From the NCBI RefSeq assembly GCF_055900595.2, contig NZ_CM148325.1: DNA of 64,000 nucleotides; one strand, given 5' to 3'. Below are positions 29,891 to 64,000 of this stretch, in pieces. The notes under the pieces were generated by a model that made no database searches, was not told where the DNA came from, and saw only the letters and a list, made by a program, of their open reading frames with translations. Made by a program: the position numbers and the translations under genes. The first letter of the stretch is position 1. Each line of letters begins with the position of its first letter.

Positions 29891-30028
29891 TCAACGCTGA
29901 GGCCAGATAATACTCTCTGGCCTCTCTCTTATTAGTTTTTCTGATTGCCAATTAATATTATCAATTTCCGCTAATAACAATCCCGCGATATAGTCTCTGC
30001 ATCAGATACTTAATTCGGAATATCCAAC

Positions 30029-30664: not shown

Positions 30665-30756
30665 GCGCTATCTGATGGAAAAATAAAACAGAGGCGCTAA
30701 GCTTGCCTCCAGAGGTCCTGAATTTTGGGCAAGTCAATTAACACGGAGAGACTAAC

Positions 30757-31497: not shown

Positions 31498-31664
31498 TAC
31501 TTGTAGCCCGACGTATTGGTCGGGCTAATGCCTTTACCCGATATTGCCTCCTTTTTCTGTAATTTTCTGTAAAACCATGACGTAATCACCTATCTTTGCT
31601 CGCGGTTTCATCAAGGATAGGCTAACTGAAACGGTTAAGCGGACAAGGATGCGGGGGAGCTGGG

Positions 31665-32561: not shown

Positions 32562-34036
32562 CCCAGCATCGAGCCGGTTGCAATTAAATTACGGTGTAAA
32601 TCGAAGACGTGGCTAAGATCGTGGTGAATATGTCCGCCGGGCGCATTTTCCAGATAGCGATGCAGATAATCCCTATACATAGGATGTGCACAATTATCAA
32701 TGATGGTGCGGGCGCGTTGAAGCGGGGAAAGACCACGCAGATCGGCGATCCCTTGTTCGGTGATGATCACTTTGACGCTGTGTTCGCTGTGATCAACATG
32801 GCTGCACATTGGCACGACGGTTGAGATCTTGCCTTCTTTAGCAATCGACGGGGCCATAAAGATCGACAGATACGCGTTGCGTTCAAAATCACCGCTGCCA
32901 CCGATGCCGTTCATCAGATCGACCCCGGCTACGTGCGTTGAGTTGGCATGCCCGTAAATATCAAACTCCAGGCCGACGTTCAGAGCGATGACGCCCAGAC
33001 GACGGATGATTTCCGGGTTATTGGAAATCTCCTGCGGACGCAACACAATGCGGCTGGCAAAGTAATCCATATTGTCGTAAATCTTGCGCAGGGAATCGGC
33101 CGAGATAGTCAGGCTGGAGGCGCTGGCCCCGCTGATTTTGCCCGTTTCCAGTAAATGCACCACCGATTCCTGTAGCACTTCCGAATACATCATGAACGGA
33201 GGAATTTCCGGGTTTTCCCCTAGTCGCGCCATGACTGCATTATTGATATTGCCCACGCCACTTTGCAGCGGCAGAAATTCCGGTGGAATACGCCCATGCG
33301 CCATTTCCTGCAACAAGAACGTGACCACGTTATCGGCAATCTGCTGGCACATGGGATTTTGCTTATCCAGCATATTACCGGCGTCGGGCAAGTTGGTTTC
33401 CACGACGGCGACAATCTTTTTCGGATCGATTTGCACATAGCGGGTACCGACGCGATCCATTGCATGGAAGATCGACACGCTATTGCGCCGCGGTGGCGCG
33501 CCAGGAATCACAATATCCGCCAGTTCTGCAACGCGCGGATCGTGATAGTGATTGAGTTCAATGATCACTTTCTTCGCCCGCAGCAGCCAGGTCGGCGCAT
33601 TACCGATCCCGCTGGTTAACCAGACTCGGCCATCCGGTGCCAGTGCCGATGCTTCAATGACGGCAACATCAATTTCGCCGAAGAAACCGTAATTGACCAT
33701 TTGCGCCACTTCGCTCAAATGCAGGTCAACGAAACTCACCGCGCCCTGATTGATCTTTTTACGTAAACCGGACGATGTTTGATATGGCGCACGCCAGGAA
33801 ACAGCATCGGCGTCAGAAAGTACATCGTCAGCGGCGGCGCTGATTGACGCCCCCGTCAGCAGGCGAATTTGATACGGCTTTTTGGCCTCATGCTGTTCGT
33901 TAGCTCTGCGGGCAATCGCGTTGGGTAGGGCTTTCGGCGAACCCGCCGGGGTAAAGCCGCTAAATGCCACCATGTCGTTATGCTGGATAATTTCTGCCGC
34001 TTCATCGGCGGTCATCCTTGTCCACTGAGTTTCCAT
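32558..34036 (-). CDS. scpC: propionyl-CoA:succinate CoA-transferase (492 aa)
   Basis: Full-length match to ScpC/YgfH. Confidence 0.9.
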   Translation of the reverse strand: METQWTRMTADEAAEIIQHNDMVAFSGFTPAGSPKALPNAIARRANEQHEAKKPYQIRLLTGASISAAADDVLSDADAVSWRAPYQTSSGLRKKINQGAVSFVDLHLSEVAQMVNYGFFGEIDVAVIEASALAPDGRVWLTSGIGNAPTWLLRAKKVIIELNHYHDPRVAELADIVIPGAPPRRNSVSIFHAMDRVGTRYVQIDPKKIVAVVETNLPDAGNMLDKQNPMCQQIADNVVTFLLQEMAHGRIPPEFLPLQSGVGNINNAVMARLGENPEIPPFMMYSEVLQESVVHLLETGKISGASASSLTISADSLRKIYDNMDYFASRIVLRPQEISNNPEIIRRLGVIALNVGLEFDIYGHANSTHVAGVDLMNGIGGSGDFERNAYLSIFMAPSIAKEGKISTVVPMCSHVDHSEHSVKVIITEQGIADLRGLSPLQRARTIIDNCAHPMYRDYLHRYLENAPGGHIHHDLSHVFDLHRNLIATGSMLG

Positions 34037-34059
34037 TTTTACTCCTTCGTTCGCAGGGA

Positions 34060-34845
34060 TTAATGACCAACGAAATTAGGTTTACGTTTTTCGAGGAAAG
34101 CGTTCATCCCTTCCTGGTAATCTTCGCTGTCATAAACCGCGCGGCGCATCCCCTGAATACGTTCAAATTCATCGGAGTTCATGGTGTGCGCTTCGCCCAG
34201 TACACGCAGTTCTTCTTTGATAACGGCAATGGCTAACGGCGCTTTCTCAGAGATGTGGTGCGCCATTTGTAAGGTGAAATCTTCCAGTTCTTCCACTTCC
34301 ACAACATGGTTGAGGATGCCGACAGCCAGCGCGCGCTGGGCTGTGATTGGCGAAGCGGTAAAAATCAGCTCTTTGACAATGTGGAAGCCCGCGTCGCGGG
34401 TCAGGTTGTGAATGCCGACCAGGTTATACGGGACGCCGAGGTTTACAGGCGTCATTGAGAAGGTTGAGGTACTGGCGGCGATGATCAGATCGGAATTCAT
34501 GATCATTTCAAATGCGCCCCCCCAAACACTACCTTCCACCATCGAAATGATCGGTTTCGGGAATTTTTGGATCATGCGGGTGATTTGACGCAACGGATCA
34601 TCATAGGAGAGCGGATCGCGACCGCCAGACGGCAGTTCGTGAATATCGTGACCTGCGGAGAAGACTTTGGATCCACTCGGCGCGCGCAAAATGATACAGC
34701 GAATTTCCGGCCGGTTGAGATCGCTTAATGCCTGCATAAGATCATCAATAAAGACTTTACTTAAGGCATTAAGTTTTCGGCCATAGTTAAACTCAATGAC
34801 CGCCACTTTGTTGATAGTGACAACGTTCACATACTGATAAGACAT
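34060..34845 (-). CDS. scpB: methylmalonyl-CoA decarboxylase, crotonase fold (261 aa)
   Basis: Track ORF trimmed 14 codons to MSYQYVNVVTINKVAVIEF... Confidence 0.9.
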   Translation of the reverse strand: MSYQYVNVVTINKVAVIEFNYGRKLNALSKVFIDDLMQALSDLNRPEIRCIILRAPSGSKVFSAGHDIHELPSGGRDPLSYDDPLRQITRMIQKFPKPIISMVEGSVWGGAFEMIMNSDLIIAASTSTFSMTPVNLGVPYNLVGIHNLTRDAGFHIVKELIFTASPITAQRALAVGILNHVVEVEELEDFTLQMAHHISEKAPLAIAVIKEELRVLGEAHTMNSDEFERIQGMRRAVYDSEDYQEGMNAFLEKRKPNFVGH

Positions 34846-34855
34846 AAAAATTCCT

Positions 34856-35851
34856 TTAATCAAAATATTGCGTCTGGATAAATTCACTGAGCTGTCGCAG
34901 GCCGGTGCGCGGTGAGAGCGTATTGTTTTTGACCGCTAAAAGCGTCTGGCGGTAATAGCGATCGAAATCTTCATTCGCGAACAGGTGATTCAGTACTTCT
35001 TCTTCGGTTTGTTTACGCAGCCATTCCACCGATTGTTGTTGCCGCACTTGCTGTAAACGACCACTGGCAGTTAGCGCGGTTTTGAAGTCGATGATGGCGT
35101 GCCAGATCTCATCGATTCCACGTTTTTCCAGTGCGCTACAAGTCAGAACTCGTGGCTGCCATTCGTCGTATTTACGTCGCAGAATATGCAGGGCACTCTC
35201 GTACATATGCCGGGCAATGGCGACATTGGTATGGTTATCGCCATCGTCTTTGTTGATAACGATCAGATCTGCCACTTCCATCAGCCCCTTTTTAATCCCC
35301 TGCAGATCATCGCCGCCACCGGCAATTTGCAACGAGATAAAACAGTCCACCATGCGGGCGACTTCCGTTTCCGACTGTCCGACGCCAACCGTTTCGACAA
35401 TCACTACGTCATAACCCGCCGCTTCGCATAACAGCATTAATTCCCGCGCTCGCTGACTGGCACCGCCCAGATGGCCGGAGGATGGTACCGGGCGAATAAA
35501 CGCCGCCTCGGCACGCGCCAGGTCATTCATGCGGGTTTTATCTCCGAGAATGCTACCGCCAGTGACCGGGCTGCTGGGATCGACCGCAATAACTGCAACC
35601 TTTAGTCCCTCACGAATCAACAACATGCCAAAGGCTTCAAGAAAGGTACTTTTCCCCGCGCCGGGTGTGCCGGTAACACCCAGTCGCAGGGCGTTACCAC
35701 AGAACGGCATAATGGCATCAAGCAGTTGCGTACTTAGCGCCTGATGACGCGGGTGACGGCTTTCCACCAGCGTCATGGCCTGGGCGAGCGTGGCACGCTC
35801 ACCCTGACGTAAGCGGCGAATACTTTCTGCCAGCGTAGCTTCATTAATCAT
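34856..35851 (-). CDS. argK: MeaB-like G-protein chaperone of methylmalonyl-CoA mutase (331 aa)
   Basis: P-loop GTPGAGKST visible; full length. Confidence 0.9.
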
Positions 35852-37988
35852 GATGCTGGCTTATCAGATTCAGTACGTCGCGCACGCTGTCGAGCATAGG
35901 CGTACCTGGACCATAAATCGCCGCCACGCCGCGCTCCTGCAGGAAGGCGTAATCCTGCGGCGGAATGACGCCACCCGCGACCACGCAGATATCTTCGCGT
36001 CCCCATTTTTTCAGCGCTTCGACCAGTTCCGGGATCAGCGTTTTATGACCGGCAGCCAGTGAAGATGCGCCCACTACGTGAACGTCGTTTTCTACTGCCA
36101 GGCGGGCGATCTCTTCAGGTGTAGAGAACATCGGGCTTAAATCTACGTCGAAACCGAGATCGGAATAGGCGCTGGCGATCACTTTCGCGCCGCGATCGTG
36201 CCCATCCTGGCCCATTTTGGCGATCAGAATGCGCGGGCGACGACCATTGTCGGCAAGGAACTGCTCCGTTTGCGCAACAATGGCATCGAACTCGGAGGCC
36301 GATTTCTCAGACTGATGATAGCTTTGCGCAATCACGCCGGTAACACACTGGCTTGGCACCAGATAACGGTCGAAAGCGGCTTCCAGCGCATCGGAAATTT
36401 CACCCAGGGTGGCGCGAACGCGAGCGGCATTAACAGCGGCAGCCAGCAGGTTTTCGTTATGCTGTGCGGCGTGAGTCAGGGCGTTCAACGCGGCGGTTAC
36501 GGCGGCATCATCACGGGTGGCGCGAATGCGTTCCAGCGAAGCAATTTGCTCGTTACGCACCATCACGTTGTCGATCTCAAGTACATCGGTTTCGTCTTCG
36601 TGATCCAGTTTGTACTTGTTGACACCAACGATGACACGTTTTCCCTGATCGATCAGCGACTGTTCACGCGCTGAGGCTTCTTCGATCATTCGTTTTGGCA
36701 GACCTGCTTCGATCGCTTTCGCCATACCTCCGGCTTCGTTGATCTGTTGGATAATGGCTCTGGCTTGTTTGACGATTTGATCGGTCAGCGATTCAACGTA
36801 ATAGGATCCGGCCAGTGGATCGACGGTGCGGCAGAGTTCTGATTCTTCCTGAATGATGATCTGGGTATTGCGGGCAATGCGTGCTGAGAAATCGGTAGGC
36901 AAACCAAGCGCTTCATCAAAGGCGTTGGTATGCAGTGACTGAGTACCGCCCAGCGTTGCAGCCAGTGCTTCAATGGTGGTGCGGATAACGTTGTTATACG
37001 GATCCTGTTCAGTCAGGCTCCAGCCTGAGGTCTGGCAGTGGGTACGCAGCGCCAGTGATTTCGGATCCTGTGCGCCAAATCCACTGACCGCTTCGCTCCA
37101 TAAATAACGTGCCGCACGCAACATGGCGACGTTCATAAACAGATCCATGCCAATGCCGAAGAAAAACGACAGGCGAGGAGCGAAGTCATCAATTTTCAGC
37201 CCAGCGGAGATTGCTGCTTTGATGTACTCAATCCCATCAGCGAGCGTAAATGCTACCTGCTGCACGCAGTTGGCACCCGCTTCACCCATATGGTAACCGC
37301 TGATACTGATGGTATTAAATCGCGGCATGTTGCCGGAACACCAGGCGATGATGTCTGCGATAATACGCATTGACGGTTTTGGCGGGTAAATATAGGTGTT
37401 GCGGCAAAGATACTCTTTGAGGATATCGTTCTGAATGGTGCCTGTCAGTTTATCGGGCGTAACTCCTTGCTCTTCTGCGGCGACGATATAAAACGCCAGT
37501 ACGGGTAACACTGCGCCATTCATGGTCATCGAAACCGACATTTTATCCAGCGGGATCTGGTCGAACAGGACTTTCATATCTTCCACGGTGTCGATAGCAA
37601 CGCCCGCTTTGCCGACGTCGCCCGCCACGCGCGGGTTATCGGAGTCGTAGCCACGGTGGGTGGCAAGGTCAAACGCAACGGAAAGACCTTTTTGCCCGGC
37701 GGCCAGGTTACGGCGATAAAAAGCGTTAGACTCTTTTGCTGTCGAGAAACCGGCATACTGACGGATAGTCCACGGTTGGGCGGTATACATAGTGGCACGC
37801 GGGCCACGAACGTAGGGTGGCAAACCAGGAAGGGTACCAGTCACTTCCAGATTATCGAGATCGGCTTCAGTATACAGCGGCTTGATGGCGATCCCTTCTG
37901 CGGTTTGCTGAACCAGCGAGTCGACAGTTTTCTCCCGACGACTCAATTCCTTGTTGGCAATCTGTTGCCACTCCTGCACGTTAGACAT
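35844..37988 (-). CDS. scpA: B12-dependent methylmalonyl-CoA mutase, 'sleeping beauty mutase' (714 aa)
   Basis: Track ORF trimmed 7 codons to MSNVQEWQQ...; 8-nt overlap with argK. Confidence 0.92.
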
Positions 37989-38191
37989 TATTTGCTCCAT
38001 AAAACGCAATCAAAATGAGGGTATTTGCGCTTACGGTGAGCTTTTTACGTGGGTTTGTCGCCAGCAAAAAAAATGCATCCAGACGTCGTTTTTTGCCGCC
38101 TGAGATTTGTCTATTTTGTGATGTGATTCAAGGAATACAAAAAGAACTGGAGGTGATGCCTGGTATGTATTACCAGGCATTATTTGATGGA

Positions 38192-39085
38192 TTATTCCTG
38201 ACGAAGAACTTTGTGACCATAATCGAGCAACGCATCAGTGACTTTACGCATCATGCGGCTTTCAGGAGCAAAGCGGTGCCAGTAGAGCATCCGGCGTTGA
38301 AATAGCCCTGGCGTTAAGTCAATCAGTTCGCCGCTGGCCAGCTCTTTCTCGATTTGCAGGTGCGGGATCATACAGCAGGTGGTGCCCTGACGAGCAAGTT
38401 GCACGAATGCTTCCGAAGAATTAACGATATGGCACGGTACGCTGCCTGGGGGCAGATCGAAGTTTTGCTGCAAAAAGGCCTGGTGCATATCGTCAAGATG
38501 GTCAAAGGCGACCACAGGTGCTTTCAATAATGCCGAACGCGTTACGCCGTTAGGGAAATATTTTTCGGCAAACGGTTTTGAGCTGACGAACAGATAGTCA
38601 AGCGCACCGAGCTTATCGACAAGACAACTCGGCAGCGCCTGATGTTGAATACTCACCGCGCCGACCACTTCGCCGCGGCGCAGACGTTCCTGAGTGCGGG
38701 TTTCATCTTCTACCTGCAAGTTGAGGCGGATAGGCGAATCAGCTAACACAGGAGCCAGCGCCGGAAGCAACCACGTCGCCAGACTGTCAGCGTTGACCGC
38801 CAGTGAAAGCAGCAGCGGAGTTGAACCGGTTTGTTCATCGCCCAGCCACTCTTCTTCCAGTAACTCCACCTGGCGTAGCAGTGCCAGCAGTTTTTGCCCT
38901 TGTTCCGTCGGGCGCGGCGGTACGGTACGCACCAACAGCGGCTGCCCGAACATATTTTCCAGTTGCTTAATGCGCTGTGAGACGGCTGATTGTGTAATGC
39001 ACAGCTTTTGTGCCGCGCGCTCAAATCCTCGTTCACGTATCACCGCATCCAGTGCCTGTAATGTTCTGTAGTCCGGGCGTTTCAT
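38192..39085 (-). CDS. argP: LysR-family regulator ArgP/IciA (297 aa)
   Basis: Track ORF trimmed 22 codons to [28 protein letters not shown]... Confidence 0.92.
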
Positions 39086-39382
39086 TGCTGTTGTCTGCTC
39101 CTGGTAAATGCTTTTTCCTGCACTATGACACAATTTTGCGTCAGGTTGCATATACCGAAGCCGTCGGCGGGTACATTTGTATCAGTGGTTAAACACGCAG
39201 CTTAAAAGATCAGGGATTTGCGCTATTGCATTTCGCTCAGCGAGTTCGCGCCCTGGAGCGGCATACCCAGACCTTTATATGCTTTATTTGCCGGGCGAAA
39301 GGGGATGCCCGCCATTGCGCGATATTTTATGGATGAGTTAACCACGCGGCTTGCCAACGGGGTCTGAATCGCTTTTTTTGTA

Positions 39383-39507
39383 TATACTCGTCATACTTCA
39401 AGTTGCATGTGCTGTGTCTGCGTTCGCTCACCCCAGTCACTTACTTCTGTAAGCTCCTGGGGATTCACTCTCTTGTCGCCTTCCTGCAACTCGAATTATT
39501 TAGAGTA
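39383..39507 (-). repeat. ERIC element, inverted relative to the copy at 27441-27566
   Basis: Reverse complement of the pgk-fbaA ERIC with only a couple of mismatches by eye. Confidence 0.85.
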
Positions 39508-39545
39508 TAATGCGAGTGAAATTTCATACCACAGGCGAAACGATC

Positions 39546-40205
39546 ATGACGCAGGATGAATTGAAAAAAGCAGTAGGATGGGCGGCACTTCAGTATGTTC
39601 AGCCCGGCACCATTGTTGGTGTAGGTACAGGTTCCACCGCCGCACACTTTATTGATGCGCTCGGCACGATGAAAGGCCAGATTGAAGGGGCCGTTTCCAG
39701 TTCGGATGCGTCCACTGAAAAACTGAAAAGCCTCGGCATTCACGTTTTTGATCTCAACGAAGTCGACAGCCTTGGCATCTACGTTGATGGCGCAGATGAA
39801 ATCAACGGCCACATGCAAATGATCAAAGGCGGCGGCGCGGCGCTGACCCGTGAAAAAATCATTGCTTCGGTTGCGGAAAAATTTATCTGTATTGCAGACG
39901 CTTCTAAGCAGGTTGATATTCTGGGCAAATTCCCGCTGCCAGTAGAAGTTATCCCGATGGCACGTAGTGCAGTGGCGCGCCAGCTGGTGAAACTGGGCGG
40001 TCGTCCGGAATACCGTCAGGGCGTGGTGACCGATAACGGCAACGTGATCCTCGACGTCCACGGCATGGAAATCCTTGACCCGATAGCGATGGAAAACGCC
40101 ATAAATGCGATTCCGGGCGTGGTGACTGTTGGCTTGTTTGCTAACCGTGGCGCGGACGTTGCGCTGATTGGCACACCTGACGGTGTCAAAACCATTGTGA
40201 AATGA
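39546..40205 (+). CDS. rpiA: ribose-5-phosphate isomerase A (219 aa)
   Basis: Track ORF trimmed 12 codons to [35 protein letters not shown]... Confidence 0.95.
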
Positions 40206-40460
40206 TCTGACGGGGGAACCTCCCCCGTTAAAAAAATTCTCTTCATTAAATTTGGTGACATGTGTCACGTTTTTACCTGGCTATTGTCGATTGCTCTAAA
40301 TAAATCCTCTAATCCAGCATATTCATCCAAGAAAAACCTTTGCGTGATATTTCCTCAACATCGCGACGCAAACGTTCATATTGCCGCAATATTATTTTTT
40401 GATATGTTGAAAGGCGGATGCAAATCCGCACACAACATTTCAAAAGACAGGATTGGGTAA

Positions 40461-41693
40461 ATGGCAAAGGTATCGCTGGAGAAAGACAAGATTAAGTTTC
40501 TGCTGGTAGAAGGCGTGCACCAAAAGGCGCTGGAAAGCCTTCGTGCAGCGGGTTACACCAACATCGAATTTCACAAAGGCGCGCTGGATGATGAACAATT
40601 AAAAGAATCCATCCGCGATGCCCACTTCATCGGCCTGCGATCCCGTACCCATCTGACTGAAGACGTGATCAACGCCGCAGAAAAACTGGTCGCTATTGGC
40701 TGTTTCTGTATCGGAACGAACCAGGTTGATCTGGATGCAGCTGCAAAACGCGGGATCCCGGTATTTAACGCACCGTTCTCTAATACGCGCTCTGTTGCGG
40801 AGCTGGTAATTGGCGAACTTCTGCTGCTATTGCGCGGCGTACCGGAAGCCAACGCTAAAGCGCACCGTGGTGTCTGGAACAAGCTGGCAGCTGGCTCTTT
40901 TGAAGCGCGCGGCAAAAAGCTGGGTATCATCGGCTATGGTCATATTGGTACACAGTTGGGCATTCTGGCTGAATCGCTGGGAATGTATGTTTACTTTTAT
41001 GATATTGAAAACAAACTGCCGCTGGGCAACGCCACTCAGGTACAGCATCTTTCTGATCTGCTGAATATGAGCGATGTGGTGAGTTTGCATGTGCCAGAGA
41101 ATCCGTCTACCAAAAATATGATGGGCGCGAAAGAGATTTCGCTAATGAAGCCCGGCTCGTTGCTGATTAATGCCTCGCGCGGAACGGTGGTGGATATTCC
41201 GGCACTGTGTGATGCGCTGGCGAGCAAACACCTGGCAGGTGCGGCAATCGATGTCTTTCCGACGGAACCGGCGACCAACAGCGATCCGTTTACCTCTCCG
41301 CTGTGCGAGTTCGATAACGTCCTTCTGACGCCACATATTGGCGGTTCGACTCAGGAAGCACAGGAGAATATCGGTCTGGAAGTTGCAGGTAAATTAATCA
41401 AGTACTCTGACAATGGCTCAACGCTCTCTGCGGTGAACTTCCCGGAAGTCTCGCTGCCACTGCATGGTGGGCGTCGTCTGATGCACATCCACGAAAACCG
41501 TCCGGGCGTGTTAACTGCGCTGAACAAAATCTTCGCCGAGCAGGGCGTTAACATCGCTGCACAGTATCTGCAAACCTCAGCGCAGATGGGTTATGTGGTT
41601 ATTGATATTGAAGCTGACGAAGACGTTGCCGAAAAAGCGCTGCAGGCAATGAAAGCTATTCCGGGCACCATTCGCGCCCGTCTGCTGTACTGA
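40461..41693 (+). CDS. serA: D-3-phosphoglycerate dehydrogenase (410 aa)
   Basis: MAKVSLEKDKIKFLLVEGVHQKALESLRAAGYTNIEFHKGALDDEQLKESIRDAHFIGLRSRT... full-length match. Confidence 0.96.
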   Translation: MAKVSLEKDKIKFLLVEGVHQKALESLRAAGYTNIEFHKGALDDEQLKESIRDAHFIGLRSRTHLTEDVINAAEKLVAIGCFCIGTNQVDLDAAAKRGIPVFNAPFSNTRSVAELVIGELLLLLRGVPEANAKAHRGVWNKLAAGSFEARGKKLGIIGYGHIGTQLGILAESLGMYVYFYDIENKLPLGNATQVQHLSDLLNMSDVVSLHVPENPSTKNMMGAKEISLMKPGSLLINASRGTVVDIPALCDALASKHLAGAAIDVFPTEPATNSDPFTSPLCEFDNVLLTPHIGGSTQEAQENIGLEVAGKLIKYSDNGSTLSAVNFPEVSLPLHGGRRLMHIHENRPGVLTALNKIFAEQGVNIAAQYLQTSAQMGYVVIDIEADEDVAEKALQAMKAIPGTIRARLLY

Positions 41694-41714
41694 TCTCCCT
41701 TCTTTAATAATCAA

Positions 41715-41744
41715 CGGGCAAGTCACTGGCTTGCCCGTTTTTTT
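41715..41744 (+). terminator. serA rho-independent terminator
   Basis: cgggcaagtcactggcttgcccg followed by ttttttt. Confidence 0.75.
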
Positions 41745-41756
41745 GTGCACAGAAAA

Positions 41757-42460
41757 CCCCCAGCTAGGCTGGGGGTTCCGGAAAGCTTTCAGCTTTGAGC
41801 CAGTTATTAAAACCCCTTTTGATTTGTTAAAACACCTTGCGGTCTGGCAACTGCAAGTGTCAAACAAGAAATCAAAAGGGGGTCCCAATGGGGGACGAAA
41901 AGAGCTTAGCGCACACCCGCTGGAACTGTAAATATCACATAGTTTTTGCGCCGAAATACCGAAGACTGGCGTTTTACGGAGAGAAGCGTAGGGCGATAGG
42001 CAGTATTTTGAGAAAGCTGTGTGAGTGGAAAAGCGTACGGATTCTGGAAGCAGAGTGCTGCGCAGATCATATCCATATGCTTGTGGAAATCCCACCCAAA
42101 ATGAGCGTATCCGGCTTTATGGGATATCTGAAAGGGAAAAGCAGTCTGATGCTTTACGAGCAGTTTGGGGATTTGAAATTCAAATACAGAAACAGGGAGT
42201 TCTGGTGCCGAGGGTACTATGTCGATACGGTGGGTAAGAACACGGCGAAGATACAGGACTACATAAAGCACCAGCTTGAAGAGGATAAAATGGGGGAGCA
42301 GTTATCGATTCCATATCCGGGCAGCCCGTTTACGGGCCGTAAGTAACGAAGTTGAATGCAAATGTCAGATCGTATGCGCCTGTTAGGGCGCGGCTGGTAA
42401 CAGAGCCTTACAGGCGCATTTGAAAAACCTCCGGCTATGCCGGAGGATATTTATTATCCC
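41757..42460 (+). mobile_element. IS200-like (IS200/IS605 family) element; boundaries approximate to about 30 bp
   Basis: Left-end palindrome cccccagctaggctggggg, a stem-loop covering the tnpA RBS, a 152-aa Y1/HUH transposase, and right-end hairpins (cctccggctatgccggagg). No terminal inverted repeats, as expected for this family. Confidence 0.75.
41888..42346 (+). CDS. tnpA: IS200-type Y1 (HUH) transposase TnpA (152 aa)
   Basis: Track ORF trimmed to MGDEKSLAHTRWNCKYHIVFAPKYRR...; HUH motif HIHMLV and catalytic-Tyr region conserved. Confidence 0.92.
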   Translation: MGDEKSLAHTRWNCKYHIVFAPKYRRLAFYGEKRRAIGSILRKLCEWKSVRILEAECCADHIHMLVEIPPKMSVSGFMGYLKGKSSLMLYEQFGDLKFKYRNREFWCRGYYVDTVGKNTAKIQDYIKHQLEEDKMGEQLSIPYPGSPFTGRK

Positions 42461-42599
42461 TTTTCCCGCGCATGTCACTGCCATTTGTAATGCGCTGCAA
42501 TTGCCTTTGCGAGTCTGCTCGAAGAAATAAATCAAAGCCAGATCAATGCGTTGTGCTTATTTAAAGAGAGTTTACGATGGCAGGGCAGCATGGGGCTGT

Positions 42600-42740
42600 A
42601 ACGGTAAAGCCCTCACCGAAGCGAGGGCTTGAAGGAGAAGGGTTATGATGCGACTCGTCATCATACTGATTGTACTGTTACTGATAAGTTTGCCAGCTTA
42701 TTAACAGTCAGTCACAGGGGAGGAGTCATCCTCCCTTACC
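42600..42740 (-). ncRNA. sibC: SibC antisense sRNA (antitoxin of ibsC); ends approximate
   Basis: Region antisense to ibsC ending in hairpin aagccctcgcttcggtgagggctt on the minus strand; position between serA and ygfA matches K-12 sibC. Confidence 0.45.
42645..42704 (+). CDS. ibsC: type I toxin IbsC, 19-aa hydrophobic peptide
   Basis: atgatgcgactcgtcatcatactgattgtactgttactgataagtttgccagcttattaa = MMRLVIILIVLLLISLPAY*, matching the Ibs toxin family as recalled. Too short for the ORF track. Confidence 0.65.
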   Translation: MMRLVIILIVLLLISLPAY

Positions 42741-42804
42741 CTTACTCACTAAATTAGGTTAAAGAATCAACGATGTCAATCAGGGCGATGCAGGTGTGTC
42801 GCCC

Positions 42805-43353
42805 TTACCACTCCCAGACTTTCGACGGTGTAACCACCGCAGGAAGTGGGATATCCCACTCTTCAACGGGGAGTTTTTCCACCAACTGACAATCATGCGC
42901 ATAACCCACCGGTTGCATTTGATAGCTCTGCCAGTTTTGTAAGGTCCGATCATAAAAACCACCGCCCATTCCCAGGCGCTGACCGTACTCATCAAAGGCG
43001 ACCAGCGGTGTGATCAACACGTCTAATCGGGAAAGGGGTAGCACGTCACGCACATCCAGTTTTGGCTCATGGATCTTCAACCTGTTCATCACCAGTTCGC
43101 TTTGCGGATGGTAATTCAGGAACAGCAAATTACCGGCACTAAAGGGATGCAAAACTGGAAGATATACGCGCTTACCGGCGCGCCAGAGTTGTTCTATGAG
43201 TGGCTGGGTGTCGAGTTCGCCATCAAAAGAGAGGAATACAGCGACCGTATGTGCCATCACCACCGGGGGATACGTCATCATCCGGGTAGCGGCTTGTTGA
43301 CCCATTTCCTGCTGTTGTTCCGGCGTTAACGCACGACGACGTTGCCGAATCAT
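42805..43353 (-). CDS. ygfA: 5-formyltetrahydrofolate cyclo-ligase (182 aa)
   Basis: Track ORF trimmed 18 codons to MIRQRRRALTPEQQQEMGQQAATRMM...; start choice uncertain. Confidence 0.85.
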   Translation of the reverse strand: MIRQRRRALTPEQQQEMGQQAATRMMTYPPVVMAHTVAVFLSFDGELDTQPLIEQLWRAGKRVYLPVLHPFSAGNLLFLNYHPQSELVMNRLKIHEPKLDVRDVLPLSRLDVLITPLVAFDEYGQRLGMGGGFYDRTLQNWQSYQMQPVGYAHDCQLVEKLPVEEWDIPLPAVVTPSKVWEW

Positions 43354-43427
43354 TTTGCGGATTTCTTGTCGAGATAATGTCAGTGGGATTTCTGGTAGTT
43401 GCGTCATGGCTGGTGCCAGATAAGAAG

Positions 43428-43610
43428 GGAATCTCCGAGATGCCGCCGCAGGCTGTAACCCTTGAACCCTTGGTTCAAGGTGAATGTGTCGTCACAGTTT
43501 TAAGGCTTCTCGGACGGACCGAGCATGCTCACCAACCGCGGAGCGCCACATTCTTGTGGTATGAAATATCGGCTCAGGGGACTGGCCCGCTTGCGAACAT
43601 CTCAGAGAAA
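43428..43610 (-). ncRNA. ssrS: 6S RNA
   Basis: Minus strand reads atttctctgagatgttcgcaagcgggccagtcccctgagccgatatttcataccacaagaatgtggcgctccgcggttggtgagcatgctcggtccgtccgagaagcc..., matching E. coli 6S RNA; located between zapA and ygfA. Confidence 0.88.
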
Positions 43611-43652
43611 TTTTGTCTTCACGGTTACTCTACCACAGTAAACCGAAAAGTG

Positions 43653-44048
<396 letters not shown>

Positions 44049-44149
44049 CTATAGCTACCCTGATGAGAAGAGACAAGCCCTTTTCTGGTCCACCAGGGCC
44101 CAAAGTGGTAGCATATCATGAATATTCCTCCCTTTGACGACGAATGCTT

Positions 44150-44728
44150 ATGTCTATACAGAACGAAATGCCTGGTTACAACGAAATGAACCAGTATCTG
44201 AACCAACAAGGGACGGGTCTGACCCCTGCTGAGATGCATGGTTTAATCAGTGGGATGATATGTGGTGGTAACGATGACAGCTCATGGCTGCCGCTGCTTC
44301 ACGACCTGACGAACGAAGGCATGGCTTTCGGTCATGAGCTGGCACAGGCATTGCGCAAAATGCACTCTGCTACCAGCGATGCCCTGCAGGATGACGGCTT
44401 CCTTTTTCAGCTTTATCTGCCTGATGGCGATGATGTCAGCGTTTTCGATCGGGCTGATGCGCTGGCAGGTTGGGTTAATCACTTCCTGCTTGGTCTTGGC
44501 GTTACGCAACCGAAGCTGGACAAAGTGACCGGCGAAACCGGTGAAGCCATCGACGATCTGCGTAACATCGCGCAGCTGGGCTACGACGAAGACGAAGATC
44601 AGGAAGAGCTGGAAATGTCGCTTGAAGAGATCATCGAGTACGTCCGTGTTGCCGCGCTGTTATGCCACGACACCTTTACTCATCCGCAACCGACCGCGCC
44701 AGAAGTACAAAAACCGACTCTACACTAA
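44150..44728 (+). CDS. ygfB: UPF0149 family protein YgfB (192 aa)
   Basis: Track ORF trimmed 2 codons to [21 protein letters not shown]... Confidence 0.85.
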
Positions 44729-44753
44729 AAACAAAAAACGTAAGGAGAGTGTT

Positions 44754-46079
44754 ATGAGTGAGATATCCCGGCAAGAGTTTCAGCGTCGCCGTCAGGCCCT
44801 GGTGGAGCAAATGCAACCCGGCAGCGCCGCGCTGATTTTTGCTGCACCAGAAGTAACACGTAGCGCCGACAGCGAATACCCCTATCGTCAGAACAGTGAC
44901 TTCTGGTACTTCACCGGCTTTAACGAACCGGAAGCGGTGCTGGTGCTGATTAAAAGTGATGACACTCATAACCACAGCGTTCTGTTTAACCGCGTACGCG
45001 ACCTGACGGCAGAGATCTGGTTTGGTCGCCGCTTAGGTCAGGATGCTGCACCGGATAAACTGGGCGTTGATCGCGCACTGGCGTTCAGCGAAATCAATCA
45101 GCAACTTTATCAACTACTTAATGGTCTGGATGTGGTGTACCACGCCCAGGGCGAATATGCATATGCTGATGAAATCGTGAACAGCGCGCTTGAAAAACTG
45201 CGTAAAGGTTCGCGACAGAATCTCACCGCCCCGGCAACGATGATCGACTGGCGTCCCATTGTTCATGAAATGCGCCTGTTCAAATCACCAGAAGAGATTG
45301 CCGTACTTCGCCGCGCGGGGGAAATCACCGCCCTGGCGCATACCCGGGCGATGGAAAAATGCCGTCCGGGAATGTTCGAGTACCATCTGGAAGGCGAAAT
45401 TCACCACGAATTTAACCGCCACGGTGCGCGCTATCCGTCCTATAACACCATTGTCGGCAGCGGTGAAAACGGCTGCATTCTGCACTACACCGAAAACGAG
45501 AGTGAACTGCGCGACGGTGACCTGGTGTTGATTGACGCGGGTTGTGAATACAAAGGTTACGCGGGCGATATTACCCGCACCTTCCCTGTTAACGGTAAAT
45601 TCACTCAGGCTCAGCGTGAAATCTACGACATTGTGCTGGAGTCTCTTGAAACCAGCCTGCGCCTGTATCGTCCGGGAACGTCCATTCAGGAAGTCACCGG
45701 TGAAGTGGTGCGCATCATGGTTAGCGGCCTGGTAAAACTCGGCATCCTGAAAGGTGATGTTGATGAACTGATCGCTCAGAACGCCCATCGTCCTTTCTTT
45801 ATGCATGGCCTTAGCCACTGGTTAGGACTGGATGTCCATGACGTTGGCGTTTATGGCCAGGATCGCTCGCGCATTCTGGAACCGGGCATGGTACTGACCG
45901 TAGAGCCGGGGCTGTATATTGCGCCGGATGCAGAAGTGCCAGAACAATATCGCGGTATCGGCATTCGTATTGAAGACGACATTGTGATTACCGAAACCGG
46001 TAACGAAAACCTCACCGCCAGCGTGGTGAAAAAGCCGGAAGAAATCGAAGCGTTGATGGCATCTGCGAGAAAGCAATGA
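44754..46079 (+). CDS. pepP: Xaa-Pro aminopeptidase (441 aa)
   Basis: Track ORF trimmed 71 codons to MSEISRQEFQRRRQALVEQMQPGSAALIF... Confidence 0.93.
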   Translation: MSEISRQEFQRRRQALVEQMQPGSAALIFAAPEVTRSADSEYPYRQNSDFWYFTGFNEPEAVLVLIKSDDTHNHSVLFNRVRDLTAEIWFGRRLGQDAAPDKLGVDRALAFSEINQQLYQLLNGLDVVYHAQGEYAYADEIVNSALEKLRKGSRQNLTAPATMIDWRPIVHEMRLFKSPEEIAVLRRAGEITALAHTRAMEKCRPGMFEYHLEGEIHHEFNRHGARYPSYNTIVGSGENGCILHYTENESELRDGDLVLIDAGCEYKGYAGDITRTFPVNGKFTQAQREIYDIVLESLETSLRLYRPGTSIQEVTGEVVRIMVSGLVKLGILKGDVDELIAQNAHRPFFMHGLSHWLGLDVHDVGVYGQDRSRILEPGMVLTVEPGLYIAPDAEVPEQYRGIGIRIEDDIVITETGNENLTASVVKKPEEIEALMASARKQ

Positions 46080-47254
46080 GCGTAATCATCGTCGGTGGCG
46101 GCATGGCGGGCGCGACGCTGGCGCTGGCTATTTCCCGGTTAAGTCACGGGGCGCTGCCGGTACATTTGATTGAAGCGACCGCGCCAGAGTCTCATGCTCA
46201 TCCGGGCTTTGATGGACGGGCTATTGCGTTGGCGGCGGGCACCTGTCAGCAACTGGCGCGCATCGGCGTCTGGCAATCTCTGGCAGATTGCGCAACCGCC
46301 ATCACTACCGTTCATGTCAGCGATCGTGGTCATGCCGGATTCGTCACCCTCGCCGCAGAAGATTACCAACTGGCGGCGCTGGGGCAGGTTGTCGAATTGC
46401 ATAATGTCGGGCAACGGCTGTTTGCATTGCTGCGCAAAGCACCTGGCGTAACGCTGCATTGCCCTGATCGCGTGGCTAACGTTGCCCGTGCTCAGAGTCA
46501 CGTTGAAGTGACGCTGGAGAGTGGCGAGACGCTGACGGGCTGCGTGCTGGTAGCCGCTGATGGCACCCATTCCGCGTTAGCCACCGCGTGCGGCGTTGAC
46601 TGGCAGCAGGAGCCTTACGAACAACTGGCTGTGATTGCTAACGTTGCGACTTCCGTTGCGCACGAAGGGCGCGCTTTTGAACGCTTTACGCAACATGGCC
46701 CGCTGGCGATGTTGCCGATGTCTGACGGACGCTGTTCGCTGGTCTGGTGTCATCCACTGGAACGGCGCGAAGAGGTGCTGTCGTGGAGCGACGAGACGTT
46801 TTGCCGTGAACTCCAGTCGGCCTTTGGTTGGCGACTTGGGAAAATTACCCACGCTGGTAAACGCAGTGCTTACCCGCTGGCGTTAACCCGCGCCGCCAGA
46901 CCTATTACCCATCGTACCGTGCTGGTGGGCAATGCGGCGCAAACTCTGCACCCGATTGCCGGGCAAGGGTTCAACCTCGGTATGCGGGATGTCATGAGCC
47001 TTGCGGAAACGCTGACTCAGGCTCAGGCACGTGAAGATGACATCGGTGATTACGGCGTATTGTGCCGTTATCAGCAGCGTCGGCAGAGCGATCGCGAAGC
47101 AACCATCGGTGTCACGGACAGCCTTGTACATCTTTTTGCCAACCGTTGGACGCCGCTGGTTGTCGGGCGCAACATCGGGCTGATGGCAATGGAATTATTC
47201 ACTCCGGCACGCGATGTGCTGGCGCAGCGCACCCTCGGTTGGGTGGCGCGTTAA
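46076..47254 (+). CDS. ubiH: 2-octaprenyl-6-methoxyphenol hydroxylase (392 aa)
   Basis: FAD-binding GxGxxG (IIVGGGMAGATLA); 4-nt overlap with pepP. Confidence 0.92.
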   Translation: MSVIIVGGGMAGATLALAISRLSHGALPVHLIEATAPESHAHPGFDGRAIALAAGTCQQLARIGVWQSLADCATAITTVHVSDRGHAGFVTLAAEDYQLAALGQVVELHNVGQRLFALLRKAPGVTLHCPDRVANVARAQSHVEVTLESGETLTGCVLVAADGTHSALATACGVDWQQEPYEQLAVIANVATSVAHEGRAFERFTQHGPLAMLPMSDGRCSLVWCHPLERREEVLSWSDETFCRELQSAFGWRLGKITHAGKRSAYPLALTRAARPITHRTVLVGNAAQTLHPIAGQGFNLGMRDVMSLAETLTQAQAREDDIGDYGVLCRYQQRRQSDREATIGVTDSLVHLFANRWTPLVVGRNIGLMAMELFTPARDVLAQRTLGWVAR

Positions 47255-47276
47255 AGGCGGCTTTAAGGAATAAACA

Positions 47277-48479
47277 ATGCAAAGTGTTGATGTAGCCATT
47301 GTTGGCGGCGGCATGGTGGGGCTGGCGGTTGCCTGCGGCTTGCAGGGCAGCGGCTTACGCGTTGCCGTACTGGAGCAGCGCGTACCGGAACCCCTGGCGG
47401 CGGATGCACCACCACAACTGCGCGTTTCGGCTATCAATGCCGCCAGCGAAAAATTACTCACCCGTCTTGGCGTCTGGCAGGACATTCTCTCTCGTAGGGC
47501 CAGTTGTTATCACGGTATGGAAGTGTGGGACAAAGACAGTTTTGGTCACATTTCGTTTGACGATCAAAGCATGGGCTATAGCCATCTTGGGCATATCGTT
47601 GAAAACTCAGTGATTCACTACGCGCTGTGGAACAAAGCGCAGCAGTCGTCAGATATCACTCTGTTGGCCCCCGCAGAATTACAGCAGGTCGCCTGGGGAG
47701 AAAATGAAACCTTCCTGACGCTGAAAGATGGCAGCATGTTAACGGCGCGTCTGGTAATTGGCGCAGACGGCGCTAATTCCTGGTTGCGCAACAAAGCCGA
47801 TATTCCGCTGACTTTCTGGGATTATCTGCATCACGCGCTGGTGGCGACCATTCGCACGGAAGAACCGCATGATGCGGTGGCGCGACAGGTTTTCCATGGC
47901 GAAGGCATTCTGGCCTTTTTGCCGCTTAGCGATCCGCATCTTTGCTCAATTGTCTGGTCACTGTCGCCAGAGGAAGCACAGCGGATGCAGCAGGCAGGCG
48001 AAGACGAATTTAACCGCGAGTTAAATATCGCTTTTGATAATCGCCTGGGCTTATGCAAGGTTGAGAGTGAACGCCTGGTGTTCCCGCTGACTGGGCGTTA
48101 TGCGCGCCAGTTTGCCGCGCACCGTCTGGCGCTGGTGGGCGACGCCGCGCATACCATTCACCCGTTGGCGGGGCAGGGGGTGAATCTCGGCTTTATGGAT
48201 GCTGCAGAGCTGATTGCTGAACTGAAACGGTTGCATCGTCAGGGTAAAGACATCGGGCAGTACATTTACCTGCGTCGCTATGAGCGTAGCCGCAAGCACA
48301 GTGCGGCGCTGATGCTGGCAGGTATGCAGGGATTCCGCGATCTGTTTTCCGGGGCTCATCCGGCGAAAAAACTGCTGCGTGATATTGGCCTGAAACTGGC
48401 CGACACGCTTCCTGGCGTTAAACCACAACTTATCCGCCAGGCAATGGGATTAAACGATTTGCCTGAATGGCTGCGTTAA
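47277..48479 (+). CDS. ubiI: 2-octaprenylphenol hydroxylase UbiI/VisC (400 aa)
   Basis: FAD-binding VAIVGGGMVGLAVA; paralogue directly downstream of ubiH. Confidence 0.92.
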   Translation: MQSVDVAIVGGGMVGLAVACGLQGSGLRVAVLEQRVPEPLAADAPPQLRVSAINAASEKLLTRLGVWQDILSRRASCYHGMEVWDKDSFGHISFDDQSMGYSHLGHIVENSVIHYALWNKAQQSSDITLLAPAELQQVAWGENETFLTLKDGSMLTARLVIGADGANSWLRNKADIPLTFWDYLHHALVATIRTEEPHDAVARQVFHGEGILAFLPLSDPHLCSIVWSLSPEEAQRMQQAGEDEFNRELNIAFDNRLGLCKVESERLVFPLTGRYARQFAAHRLALVGDAAHTIHPLAGQGVNLGFMDAAELIAELKRLHRQGKDIGQYIYLRRYERSRKHSAALMLAGMQGFRDLFSGAHPAKKLLRDIGLKLADTLPGVKPQLIRQAMGLNDLPEWLR

Positions 48480-48559
48480 AAATTTCTCCTCTGTTGTTTA
48501 TTTGATACCCATCACACTTTCATCTCCCGGTTTTTTCGCCGGGAGATTTTCCTCATTTG

Positions 48560-48926
48560 AAATAAACTAATTTCACCTCCGTTTTCGCATTATATTTTCT
48601 AATGTCACGAATTTTTGATTTAGTGTTTTTTGACATTTTTTCAGTTCTTAATATTGCCTTATTCAAATTAAGTTTCTCATCACATCATCTTTGTATAGAA
48701 AATGGAATGTTTTTTGGTTTTTTATTCTGTTGTTATTCTGGCGTTTTTTAACCATAAGCTAATGTGATGATCAATTTTACCTTATGGTTAACAGTCTGTT
48801 TCGGTGGTAAGTTCAGGGAAAAGAGAACGATTGCGTTGGGGACCGGGAGTGGCTCCGATGCTGGGTTTCGTGGTGATAATTTCGCCATGGAAAAGTTGTC
48901 AGCCCCGCTTATTCAATGAGGACAAG
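48560..48926 (+). promoter_or_regulatory. AT-rich gcvTHP upstream control region
   Basis: About 400 bp AT-rich spacer between the ubiI terminator hairpin (tctcccggttttttcgccgggaga) and gcvT; in E. coli this region holds the gcv promoter and its regulator-binding sites. Sites not individually mapped. Confidence 0.4.
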
Positions 48927-50021
48927 ATGGCACAACAGACTCCTTTGTACGAACAACACACGCTTTGCGGCGCTCGCATGGTGGATTTCCACGGCTGGAT
49001 GATGCCGCTGCATTACGGTTCGCAAATCGACGAACATCATGCGGTACGTACCGATGCCGGAATGTTTGATGTGTCACATATGACCATCGTCGATCTTCGC
49101 GGCAGTCGCACCCGGGAGTTTCTGCGTTATCTGCTGGCGAACGATGTGGCGAAGCTCACCAAAAGCGGCAAAGCCCTTTACTCGGGGATGTTGAATGCCT
49201 CTGGCGGTGTGATAGATGATCTCATCGTTTACTACTTTACTGAAGATTTCTTCCGCCTCGTTGTTAACTCCGCCACCCGCGAAAAAGACCTCTCCTGGAT
49301 TACCCAACACGCTGAACCCTTCGGTATCGAAATTACCGTTCGTGATGACCTTTCCATGATTGCCGTACAAGGGCCGAATGCGCAGGCAAAAGCTGCCACA
49401 CTGTTTAATGATGCTCAGCGTCAGGCGGTGGAAGGGATGAAACCCTTCTTTGGCGTGCAGGCGGGCGCTCTGTTTATTGCCACCACCGGTTATACCGGTG
49501 AAGTGGGCTACGAAATTGCGCTGCCCAATGAAAAAGCGGCGGATTTCTGGCGTGCGCTGGTGGAAGCGGGCGTTAAGCCCTGCGGTCTGGGCGCGCGTGA
49601 CACGCTGCGTCTGGAAGCGGGTATGAATCTTTATGGTCAGGAGATGGACGAAACCATTTCTCCTTTAGCAGCCAACATGGGCTGGACCATCGCGTGGGAA
49701 CCGGCTGATCGTGACTTTATCGGTCGTGAAGCTCTGGAAGCGCAGCGTGAACATGGCACAGAAAAACTGGTTGGTCTGGTGATGACCGAAAAAGGCGTGC
49801 TGCGTAATGAACTGCCGGTACGTTTTACCGATGCGCAGGGCAATCAGCATGAAGGCATTATCACCAGCGGTACTTTCTCCCCGACGTTGGGTTACAGCAT
49901 TGCGCTGGCACGCGTGCCGGAAGGTATTGGCGAAACGGCGATTGTGCAAATTCGCAACCGTGAAATGCCGGTAAAAGTGACGAAACCTGTTTTTGTGCGT
50001 AACGGCAAAGCCGTCGCGTGA
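48927..50021 (+). CDS. gcvT: glycine cleavage system T protein, aminomethyltransferase (364 aa)
   Basis: Track ORF trimmed 41 codons to [27 protein letters not shown]... Confidence 0.95.
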
Positions 50022-53487: not shown

Positions 53488-53598
53488 ACATTGCCTGATG
53501 CACCTCGTTTATCAGGCCTACATAGTCTGTGCAATGTATTGAATTTGCACGATCTTGTAGGCTGGATAAGGCGTTCACGCCGCATCCGGCATAATAAA
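53488..53598. repeat. REP/BIME units
   Basis: gcctgatgcacctcgtttatcaggcctaca and inverted gtaggctggataaggcgttcacgccgcatccggc. Confidence 0.75.
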
Positions 53599-61349: not shown

Positions 61350-63083
61350 GTGAAACAACAGATACAACTTCGTCGCCGTGAAGTCGATGAAACGGCAGAC
61401 TTGCCCGCTGAATTGCCTCCCTTGCTGCGCCGTTTATATGCCAGCCGGGGAGTACGCAGTGCGCAAGAACTGGAACGTAGTGTAAAAGGTATGCTGCCCT
61501 GGCAGCAACTGAGCGGCGTCGAAAAGGCCGTTGAGATCCTTTACAACGCTTTTCGCGAAGGAACGCGGATTATGGTGGTCGGTGACTTCGACGCCGACGG
61601 TGCCACCAGCACGGCTCTAAGCGTGCTGGCGATGCGCTCGCTTGGTTGCAGCAATATCGACTACCTGGTACCAAACCGGTTCGAAGACGGTTACGGCTTA
61701 AGCCCGGAAGTGGTTGATCAGGCCCATGCCCGTGGCGCGCAGTTAATTGTCACGGTGGATAACGGTATTTCCTCCCATGCGGGGGTTGAACACGCTCGCT
61801 CGTTGGGCATTCCGGTTATTGTTACCGATCACCATTTGCCGGGCGAAACATTACCCGCGGCGGAAGCGATCATTAACCCTAACTTGCGCGACTGCAATTT
61901 CCCGTCGAAATCACTGGCAGGCGTGGGGGTGGCGTTTTATTTAATGCTGGCGCTGCGCACCTTTTTGCGTGATCAGGGCTGGTTTGATGAGCGTGGTATC
62001 GCAATTCCTAACCTGGCAGAACTGCTGGATCTGGTCGCATTGGGGACAGTGGCAGACGTCGTGCCGCTGGATGCTAATAATCGCATTCTGACCTGGCAGG
62101 GGATGAGTCGCATCCGTGCCGGAAAGTGCCGTCCAGGGATTAAAGCGCTGCTGGAAGTGGCCAACCGCGATGCGCAAAAACTCGCCGCCAGCGATTTAGG
62201 TTTTGCGCTGGGGCCACGTCTCAATGCTGCCGGGCGACTGGATGATATGTCCGTTGGTGTGGCGCTGTTGCTGTGCGACAACATCGGCGAAGCGCGCGTA
62301 CTGGCAAATGAACTCGATGCGCTAAACCAGACGCGAAAAGAGATCGAACAGGGAATGCAGGTTGAAGCCCTGACCCTGTGCGAGAAACTGGAGCGCAGCC
62401 GCGAGACACTACCCGGCGGGCTGGCAATGTATCACCCGGAATGGCATCAGGGCGTGGTTGGTATTCTGGCTTCGCGTATTAAAGAGCGTTTTCACCGTCC
62501 GGTTATCGCTTTTGCGCCTGCGGGTGACGGTACGCTGAAAGGTTCCGGTCGCTCCATTCAGGGGCTGCATATGCGTGATGCGCTGGAGCGGCTAGACACA
62601 CTCTACCCCGGCATGATGCTGAAATTTGGCGGTCATGCGATGGCGGCAGGCCTGTCGCTGGAAGAGGATAAATTCGAACTCTTTCAGCAACGGTTTGGCG
62701 AACTGGTTACTGAGTGGCTGGACCCTTCGCTATTGCAAGGCGAAGTGGTGTCAGACGGTCCGCTAAGCCCAGCCGAAATGACCATGGAAGTGGCGCAGCT
62801 GCTGCGCGATGCTGGCCCGTGGGGGCAGATGTTCCCGGAGCCGCTGTTTGACGGTCATTTCCGTCTGCTGCAACAGCGACTGGTGGGTGAACGTCATTTG
62901 AAAGTCATGGTCGAACCGGTCGGCGGCGGTCCGCTGCTGGACGGTATTGCTTTTAATGTCGATACCGCCCTCTGGCCGGATAATGGCGTGCGCGAAGTGC
63001 AACTGGCTTACAAGCTGGATATCAACGAGTTTCGTGGCAACCGCAGCCTGCAAATTATCATCGACAATATCTGGCCAATTTAG
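61350..63083 (+). CDS. recJ: ssDNA 5'-3' exonuclease RecJ (577 aa)
   Basis: GTG start at 61350; DHH motifs (VVGDFDADGATS, VTDHH). Confidence 0.96.
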   Translation: MKQQIQLRRREVDETADLPAELPPLLRRLYASRGVRSAQELERSVKGMLPWQQLSGVEKAVEILYNAFREGTRIMVVGDFDADGATSTALSVLAMRSLGCSNIDYLVPNRFEDGYGLSPEVVDQAHARGAQLIVTVDNGISSHAGVEHARSLGIPVIVTDHHLPGETLPAAEAIINPNLRDCNFPSKSLAGVGVAFYLMLALRTFLRDQGWFDERGIAIPNLAELLDLVALGTVADVVPLDANNRILTWQGMSRIRAGKCRPGIKALLEVANRDAQKLAASDLGFALGPRLNAAGRLDDMSVGVALLLCDNIGEARVLANELDALNQTRKEIEQGMQVEALTLCEKLERSRETLPGGLAMYHPEWHQGVVGILASRIKERFHRPVIAFAPAGDGTLKGSGRSIQGLHMRDALERLDTLYPGMMLKFGGHAMAAGLSLEEDKFELFQQRFGELVTEWLDPSLLQGEVVSDGPLSPAEMTMEVAQLLRDAGPWGQMFPEPLFDGHFRLLQQRLVGERHLKVMVEPVGGGPLLDGIAFNVDTALWPDNGVREVQLAYKLDINEFRGNRSLQIIIDNIWPI

Positions 63084-63173
63084 CGTCATATTATCTATAA
63101 AAAAGAGCGTGGATTCGGTACAATCCCGCTCTTATCACCGCATTTTGACTAGCTCAATAAAAGAAATCAGACC

Positions 63174-64000
63174 ATGTTTGAAATTAATCCGGTAAATAAT
63201 CGCATTCAGGACCTCACGGAACGCTCCGACGTTCTTAGGGGGTATCTTTGACTACGACGCCAAGAAAGAGCGTCTGGAAGAAGTAAACGCCGAGCTGGAA
63301 CAGCCGGATGTCTGGAACGAACCCGAACGCGCACAGGCGCTGGGTAAAGAGCGTTCCTCCCTCGAAGCCGTTGTCGACACCCTCGACCAAATGAAACAGG
63401 GGCTGGAAGATGTTTCTGGTCTGCTGGAGCTGGCTGTAGAAGCTGACGACGAAGAAACCTTTAACGAAGCCGTTACTGAACTCGACGCCCTGGAAGAAAA
63501 ACTGGCGCAGCTTGAGTTCCGTCGTATGTTCTCTGGCGAATATGATAGCGCCGACTGCTACCTCGATATTCAGGCAGGTTCTGGCGGTACGGAAGCACAG
63601 GACTGGGCGAGCATGCTTGAGCGTATGTATCTGCGCTGGGCTGAATCGCGTGGTTTCAAAACTGAAATCATCGAAGAGTCGGAAGGTGAAGTGGCGGGTA
63701 TTAAATCCGTGACTATCAAAATCTCCGGCGATTACGCTTACGGCTGGCTGCGTACTGAAACCGGCGTTCACCGCCTGGTGCGCAAGAGCCCGTTTGACTC
63801 CGGCGGTCGTCGCCACACGTCGTTCAGCTCCGCGTTTGTTTACCCGGAAGTCGATGATGATATCGATATCGAAATCAATCCGGCGGATCTGCGCATCGAC
63901 GTTTATCGCGCATCCGGCGCGGGTGGTCAGCACGTTAACCGTACCGAATCTGCGGTGCGTATTACTCACATCCCAACCGGGATTGTGACCCAATGCCAGA
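63174..64000 (+). CDS. prfB: peptide chain release factor 2, partial (runs off window end); needs +1 frameshift after codon 25
   Basis: ATG at 63174, 25 codons ([25 protein letters not shown]), in-frame TGA at 63249-63251, then +1 frame from 63250 ([12 protein letters not shown]...) with SPF and GGQ motifs. Absent from ORF track because there is no in-window stop in the second frame. Confidence 0.92.
63237..63252 (+). other. prfB programmed +1 frameshift site
   Basis: agggggtatctttgac: internal Shine-Dalgarno-like aggggg, slippery CUU, then UGA C. Confidence 0.88.

Follow-up and report, generated by a model that had tools for sequence, protein, structure and literature searches.

We analysed a 64,000-nucleotide stretch of DNA (the window, at its full length) that runs into the gene for release factor 2 (RF2) at its 3′ end. 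The open reading frame (ORF) at 61350-63083 is recJ, and the order recJ-prfB is the same as in E. coli, where lysS comes after prfB. The first reading frame of prfB, ORF0, occupies 63174-63251 on the plus strand and is identical to that of K-12. Read from the sequence, it begins with the ATG at 63174-63176, continues for 25 sense codons and meets an in-frame TGA (UGA in the mRNA) as codon 26 at 63249-63251. This TGA sits within the 16-mer AGGGGGTATCTTTGAC (63237-63252, plus strand), in agreement with the preliminary description of this DNA, which had placed an in-frame UGA at codon 26 inside a recoding motif. The 16-mer occurs a single time in the 64-kb window, on the plus strand, and 0.01 chance matches are expected there at two or fewer mismatches.

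Anatomy of the shift site

An internal Shine-Dalgarno (SD)-like AGGGGG is seen directly in the sequence at 63237-63242 (plus strand), and its pairing with the 3′ end of 16S rRNA can be extended to U63243. Since an Rfam scan at gathering thresholds detected no 16S rRNA gene within the window, the textbook 3′ end of E. coli 16S rRNA was assumed as the anti-SD partner, and the duplex between it and the AGGGGG region was predicted at -12.6 kcal/mol, which is among the strongest in prfB. The SD-like element is separated by the 3-nt spacer UAU (Tyr24; 63243-63245, plus strand) from the slippery CUU-U (63246-63249, plus strand), and the UGA that follows, an RF2-specific stop codon, is succeeded by a C at 63252, a context in which termination is weak (63249-63252, plus strand). 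All the elements that define a prfB +1 site, namely AGGGGG, UAU, CUU-U and UGA-C, are therefore present at the exact canonical spacing. In a survey of prfB frameshifting over more than 12,000 genomes, the elements of the site are given as an in-frame TGA at position 26 and a purine-rich SD-like sequence approaching AGGGGG, together with a slippery CTTT 3 nt downstream of the SD-like sequence, at a spacing of 3 nt that is conserved, and a C after the stop that leads to weak termination (PMC12421855).

In the same Rfam scan, which took in the whole window, the shift site was covered by no family, as expected, because the signal is a linear sequence and not a structured RNA. A scan of 62900-63400 for promoter and terminator consensus sequences returned two weak matches, one resembling a promoter and the other a terminator; both fall within recJ and do not exceed what shuffled sequences yield. 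In the recJ-prfB spacer, we also observed a 12-bp interrupted hairpin at 63103-63133 (AAGAGCGUGGAUU...AAUCCCGCUCUU; z = -2.4 versus shuffles), which has no U-run after it and carries a window-specific C at 63116 in its loop.

Reading frames and the joined RF2 product

Past the TGA, frame 0 reaches its next stop after 32 codons and then many more. The +1 frame, entered at the GAC at 63250, meets no stop in the 250 codons that remain before the window end; it covers RF2 residues 26-275 (63250-64000, plus strand), with the last complete codon ending at 63999, where the window end cuts the gene. Since the +1 ORF lacks a start codon and is still open where the window ends, the 25-aa ORF is the sole entry for prfB in the program-made ORF list, and it had been rightly anticipated that a naive ORF caller would miss or truncate the gene.

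When E. coli RF2 was compared with the window by tblastn, amino acids 1-25 matched 63174-63248 in frame 3, and amino acids 21-275 matched 63235-63999 in frame 1, the second match adjoining the first. Accordingly, the RF2 alignment across the junction, which the preliminary description had proposed as a check, runs in two frames, and the continuous single-frame alignment that it had named as the contrary outcome was not obtained. The joined product of 275 aa aligned over its whole length with the E. coli RF2 of PDB 1gqe_A, residues 1-275, at E = 3e-181, with no gap at the junction 25/26 and with A101T (Thr here) as the sole substitution. Moreover, it scored 385.5 bits against the NCBIfam model TIGR00020 (prfB; cut-off 370), though the protein is truncated, but only 229.2 bits against the prfA model (cut-off 423.25), and the scores for the RF1 models were all well below their cut-offs.

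The joined product contains the SPF tripeptide at residues 205-207 (63787-63795, plus strand), which is the stop-codon recognition motif of RF2. It also contains the catalytic GGQ motif of RF2 at residues 250-252 (63922-63930), at the end of a stretch that begins with Ala246 (GCA, 63910-63912; the whole at 63910-63930, plus strand). By its sequence, the joined product is identified as RF2. The window stops at codon 275 of the 365 codons of prfB, with the C-terminal 90 residues and the stop codon outside. The earlier wording that the frameshift is intact thus applies to the recoding site and to codons 1-275, but not to the whole gene, the remaining 3′ quarter of which lies beyond the window end.

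Comparison with annotated genomes and alternative explanations

No base differs between the window and K-12 MG1655 (100% identity) over the 312 nt at 63117-63428, which comprise a 57-nt leader, ORF0, the cassette and the next 60 codons. Over the 1024 nt compared there are 30 differences from K-12 MG1655, mostly synonymous, and none of them falls in 63117-63428. At the protein level, 273 of 275 RF2 residues are identical to K-12, the two exceptions being Thr101 (Ala in K-12) and Ala246 (Thr, encoded by ACG, in K-12). The Thr101 of the window (63475) stands where not only K-12 but also strain RMDEC465 and PDB 1gqe have Ala. Thr246 is peculiar to K-12 strains, while other E. coli lineages and other bacteria carry Ala or Ser (PMC5373646), and the Ala246 of the window is therefore the common natural allele at this position.

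We then considered how the same locus is annotated elsewhere. Of 5426 complete E. coli genomes, 5425 contain a single match to the 1001 nt at 63000-64000, lying under recJ and prfB features. In the closest genome, that of strain RMDEC465 (99.8% identical over 63000-64000), the prfB annotation joins two pieces, carries the note "programmed frameshift" and gives a product of 365 aa, and lysS follows the gene. The annotation was the same in 8 more genomes sampled across the identity ranking, and K-12 b2891 (prfB) is also annotated as a join. Recoding-aware annotation, the second check that had been proposed, thus gives a two-piece join in the RefSeq homologues, the note "programmed frameshift" standing in their PGAP-annotated records. 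Around the site itself, 5418 of the 5425 matching complete E. coli genomes share at least 99% identity with the window over the 117 nt at 63174-63290.

The lowest-identity E. coli match, NIPH17_0036 (L004, NZ_AP024561.1), was tried as a candidate for a prfB without frameshift and was ruled out, the cassette being intact and the defect lying mid-gene. There, a mid-gene stretch of prfB (about 1030-1095 of the locus) is scrambled and 26 nt shorter, and the gene is annotated as a pseudogene, "PCRF domain-containing protein"; the scrambled segment is possibly an assembly error.

The cassette was also found far outside E. coli. In a scan with one genome per species, the exact 16-mer AGGGGGTATCTTTGAC was present at no fewer than 120 loci in species genomes from several phyla, and the loci listed belong to Gammaproteobacteria, Betaproteobacteria, Bacteroidota, Nitrospirae and other groups. 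An RF2-like tblastn match adjoined the 16-mer on the same strand at 116 of the 120 loci listed, and a +1 ORF with both SPF and GGQ was present at 101 of these 120. Of the four other listed loci, two lie so close to a locus end that no gene would fit. The remaining two, in an Aminicenantes MAG (L051, 636-652) and a Cryomorphaceae MAG (L072, 7240-7255), have AGGGGGTATCTTTGAC without RF2 nearby and with a short +1 ORF after it, and these 16-mers are probably chance occurrences; by our own arithmetic, chance alone should produce a 16-mer roughly 140 times in 2 x 298 Gb.

Given that single-base frame breaks are a common artefact, the break in the window might be taken for a sequencing or assembly error, or for an inactivating 1-nt insertion, so that the locus would hold a pseudogene or a truly single-frame gene; one complete genome, the NIPH17_0036 described above, does carry a prfB annotated as a pseudogene. 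However, its defect lies elsewhere in prfB and not at the shift site, whereas the break in the window falls exactly in the canonical cassette, in surroundings that are identical to K-12 and nearly universal among the E. coli genomes matched, and RefSeq annotates the same break as programmed. We consider an error or a pseudogene highly improbable.

It would be just as surprising if the locus consisted of two separate genes, that is, a small ORF of 25 codons followed by an RF2 gene with its own start in the +1 frame. Taken alone, ORF0 does have its own start and stop codons and forms a complete small ORF, but the +1 frame is devoid of ATG, GTG and TTG from its upstream stop (63193) to 63391, and independent initiation would thus cost at least 72 N-terminal residues. 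Moreover, residues 1-25 of the solved E. coli RF2 are the ORF0 peptide and are continuous with residue 26. Slighter still is the chance that the UGA is bypassed in frame 0 by read-through or recoding (selenocysteine or a suppressor) with no change of frame: bacteria recode UGA more often than any other codon, but the stops that crowd frame 0 after its first 32 further codons come with no RF2 similarity, and the similarity to RF2 past the UGA is entirely in the +1 frame.

The sequence also suggests that the window comes from a divergent Escherichia lineage that is poorly represented among complete genomes. Its 63000-64000 region reaches at least 99% identity in only 11 complete E. coli genomes, and over 30000-50000 the best of the 5426 shows an identity of only about 97%. 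The query 30000-50000 found several to many matching places per genome, with 825 places on plasmids. Within the window, four RNAs scored above the Rfam gathering score: an STnc490 Hfq-binding RNA (41755-41878, plus strand), a Sib antitoxin RNA (42629-42779, minus strand), the 6S/SsrS RNA (43428-43611, minus strand) and an ES036 sRNA (53514-53556, minus strand). In strain CFSAN018748, the annotation of the matching region places an IS200/IS605 transposase gene and an Ibs toxin gene between serA and fau; STnc490 is therefore probably part of an IS200 copy, and Sib probably adjoins an ibs gene.

Proposed autoregulation at the site, and its invariant surroundings

Taken together, we assign the end of the window, with a probability of about 0.97, to the 5′ three quarters of prfB in an Escherichia chromosome, with the canonical autoregulatory +1 programmed ribosomal frameshift. 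The shift site is the textbook one, real, ordinary and already known, and the +1 frameshift reported for prfB in the preliminary description is borne out in all its elements, in the change of frame and in the RF2 product. The prfB frameshift was described in the 1980s and is a classic case of a product controlling its own synthesis. For the window, we infer slippage and feedback by RF2 from published work on the identical K-12 sequence, because 63117-63428 matches without a single difference the experimentally studied K-12 site, at which the frameshift mechanism was established (reviewed in PMC12421855).

By analogy with K-12, ribosomes would begin at the ATG at 63174 and read 25 codons, after which tRNA-Leu on CUU (63246-63248) would be in the P site and UGA (63249-63251, with C next) in the A site, while UAU (Tyr24) would be the E-site codon when the shift happens. 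When RF2 is plentiful, the UGA would be recognised and a 25-residue peptide released. When RF2 is scarce, the ribosome would wait at the weak UGA-C context, AGGGGG(U), 3 nt upstream of the slippery codon, would pair with the 3′ end of 16S rRNA, and the peptidyl-tRNA-Leu would slip from CUU to UUU, so that GAC (63250-63252) would be read as Asp26 and full-length RF2 would be made. The UGA-C would in this way serve as a sensor of the RF2 level, and a rise in RF2 would lower RF2 production.

Several known systems can be compared with the prfB of the window. The leader, ORF0, the series AGGGGG-UAU-CUU-UGA-C, the next 60 codons and the upstream recJ are all shared with prfB of K-12 MG1655 (b2891), which differs at the positions that are Thr101 and Ala246 here, and the copy in the window is truncated by the window end. 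Genes for RF2 without the frameshift, such as those of all surveyed Actinomycetota, have a single frame with no internal UGA (PMC12421855). They belong to the same protein family, whereas the prfB of the window needs the +1 shift. The -1 frameshift of E. coli dnaX also has an internal Shine-Dalgarno-like stimulator pairing with 16S rRNA. However, the heptamer on which dnaX shifts is A-AAA-AAG, its SD-like element stands farther away, a hairpin lies downstream, and no stop codon serves as sensor. In the window, prfB would shift by +1 at CUU-UGA, where the spacing is 3 nt and the predicted structure is not unusually stable. The eukaryotic antizyme gene (OAZ) likewise has an autoregulatory +1 shift at an in-frame UGA, the efficiency of which reports on the controlled pathway, but it senses polyamines and not a release factor, and it is stimulated by a downstream pseudoknot without SD/anti-SD pairing.

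The surroundings of the site are invariant over a longer stretch. When the window was aligned with 10 E. coli genomes drawn from across the identity ranking, 67 of 1317 columns varied overall, but none did in 63117-63428 (the 57-nt leader and codons 1-85), the flanks of which vary at about 5% of columns. A control of equal length to 63174-63290, taken at 63700-63816 (117 nt), is at least 99% identical in only 6 E. coli genomes, compared with 5418 for the former. Between genera, where the comparisons are phylogenetically non-independent, synonymous changes relative to K-12 were found in about 11-21% of those codons within 1-55 that encode the same amino acid in Citrobacter, Enterobacter and Superficieibacter, which is about half of the approximately 27-33% in the rest of their prfB. 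For E. albertii, the synonymous changes relative to K-12 numbered 0/55 in codons 1-55 and 36/120 mid-gene. For Yersinia, Photorhabdus and Providencia, little remains of the difference between codons 1-55 and the rest. The 3′ end of prfB, too, shows rather strong conservation when E. coli is compared with E. albertii.

Folding of 63117-63428 gave z = 0.08, versus -0.96 for the control 63429-63740, indicating no unusual mRNA stability; a stable mRNA structure thus does not account for the invariance, and we rejected it as the cause. The expression or recoding of prfB might instead depend on cis information well beyond the 16-nt cassette, which we regard as rather unlikely; such information could consist of codon-speed or ribosome-spacing requirements, or of an overlapping element. 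The more ordinary explanations would be a local sweep, recombination or chance, and the invariant stretch is a lead and not a result.

For the annotation of such genomes, the frame break in prfB is not to be reported as a pseudogene or an error: gene callers that are unaware of recoding split or truncate prfB, whereas recoding-aware pipelines annotate it routinely. With its Ala246 allele, the RF2 encoded here is of the natural, non-K-12 type, and the invariant stretch around its shift site may offer a small lead for studies of synonymous constraint at recoding sites.
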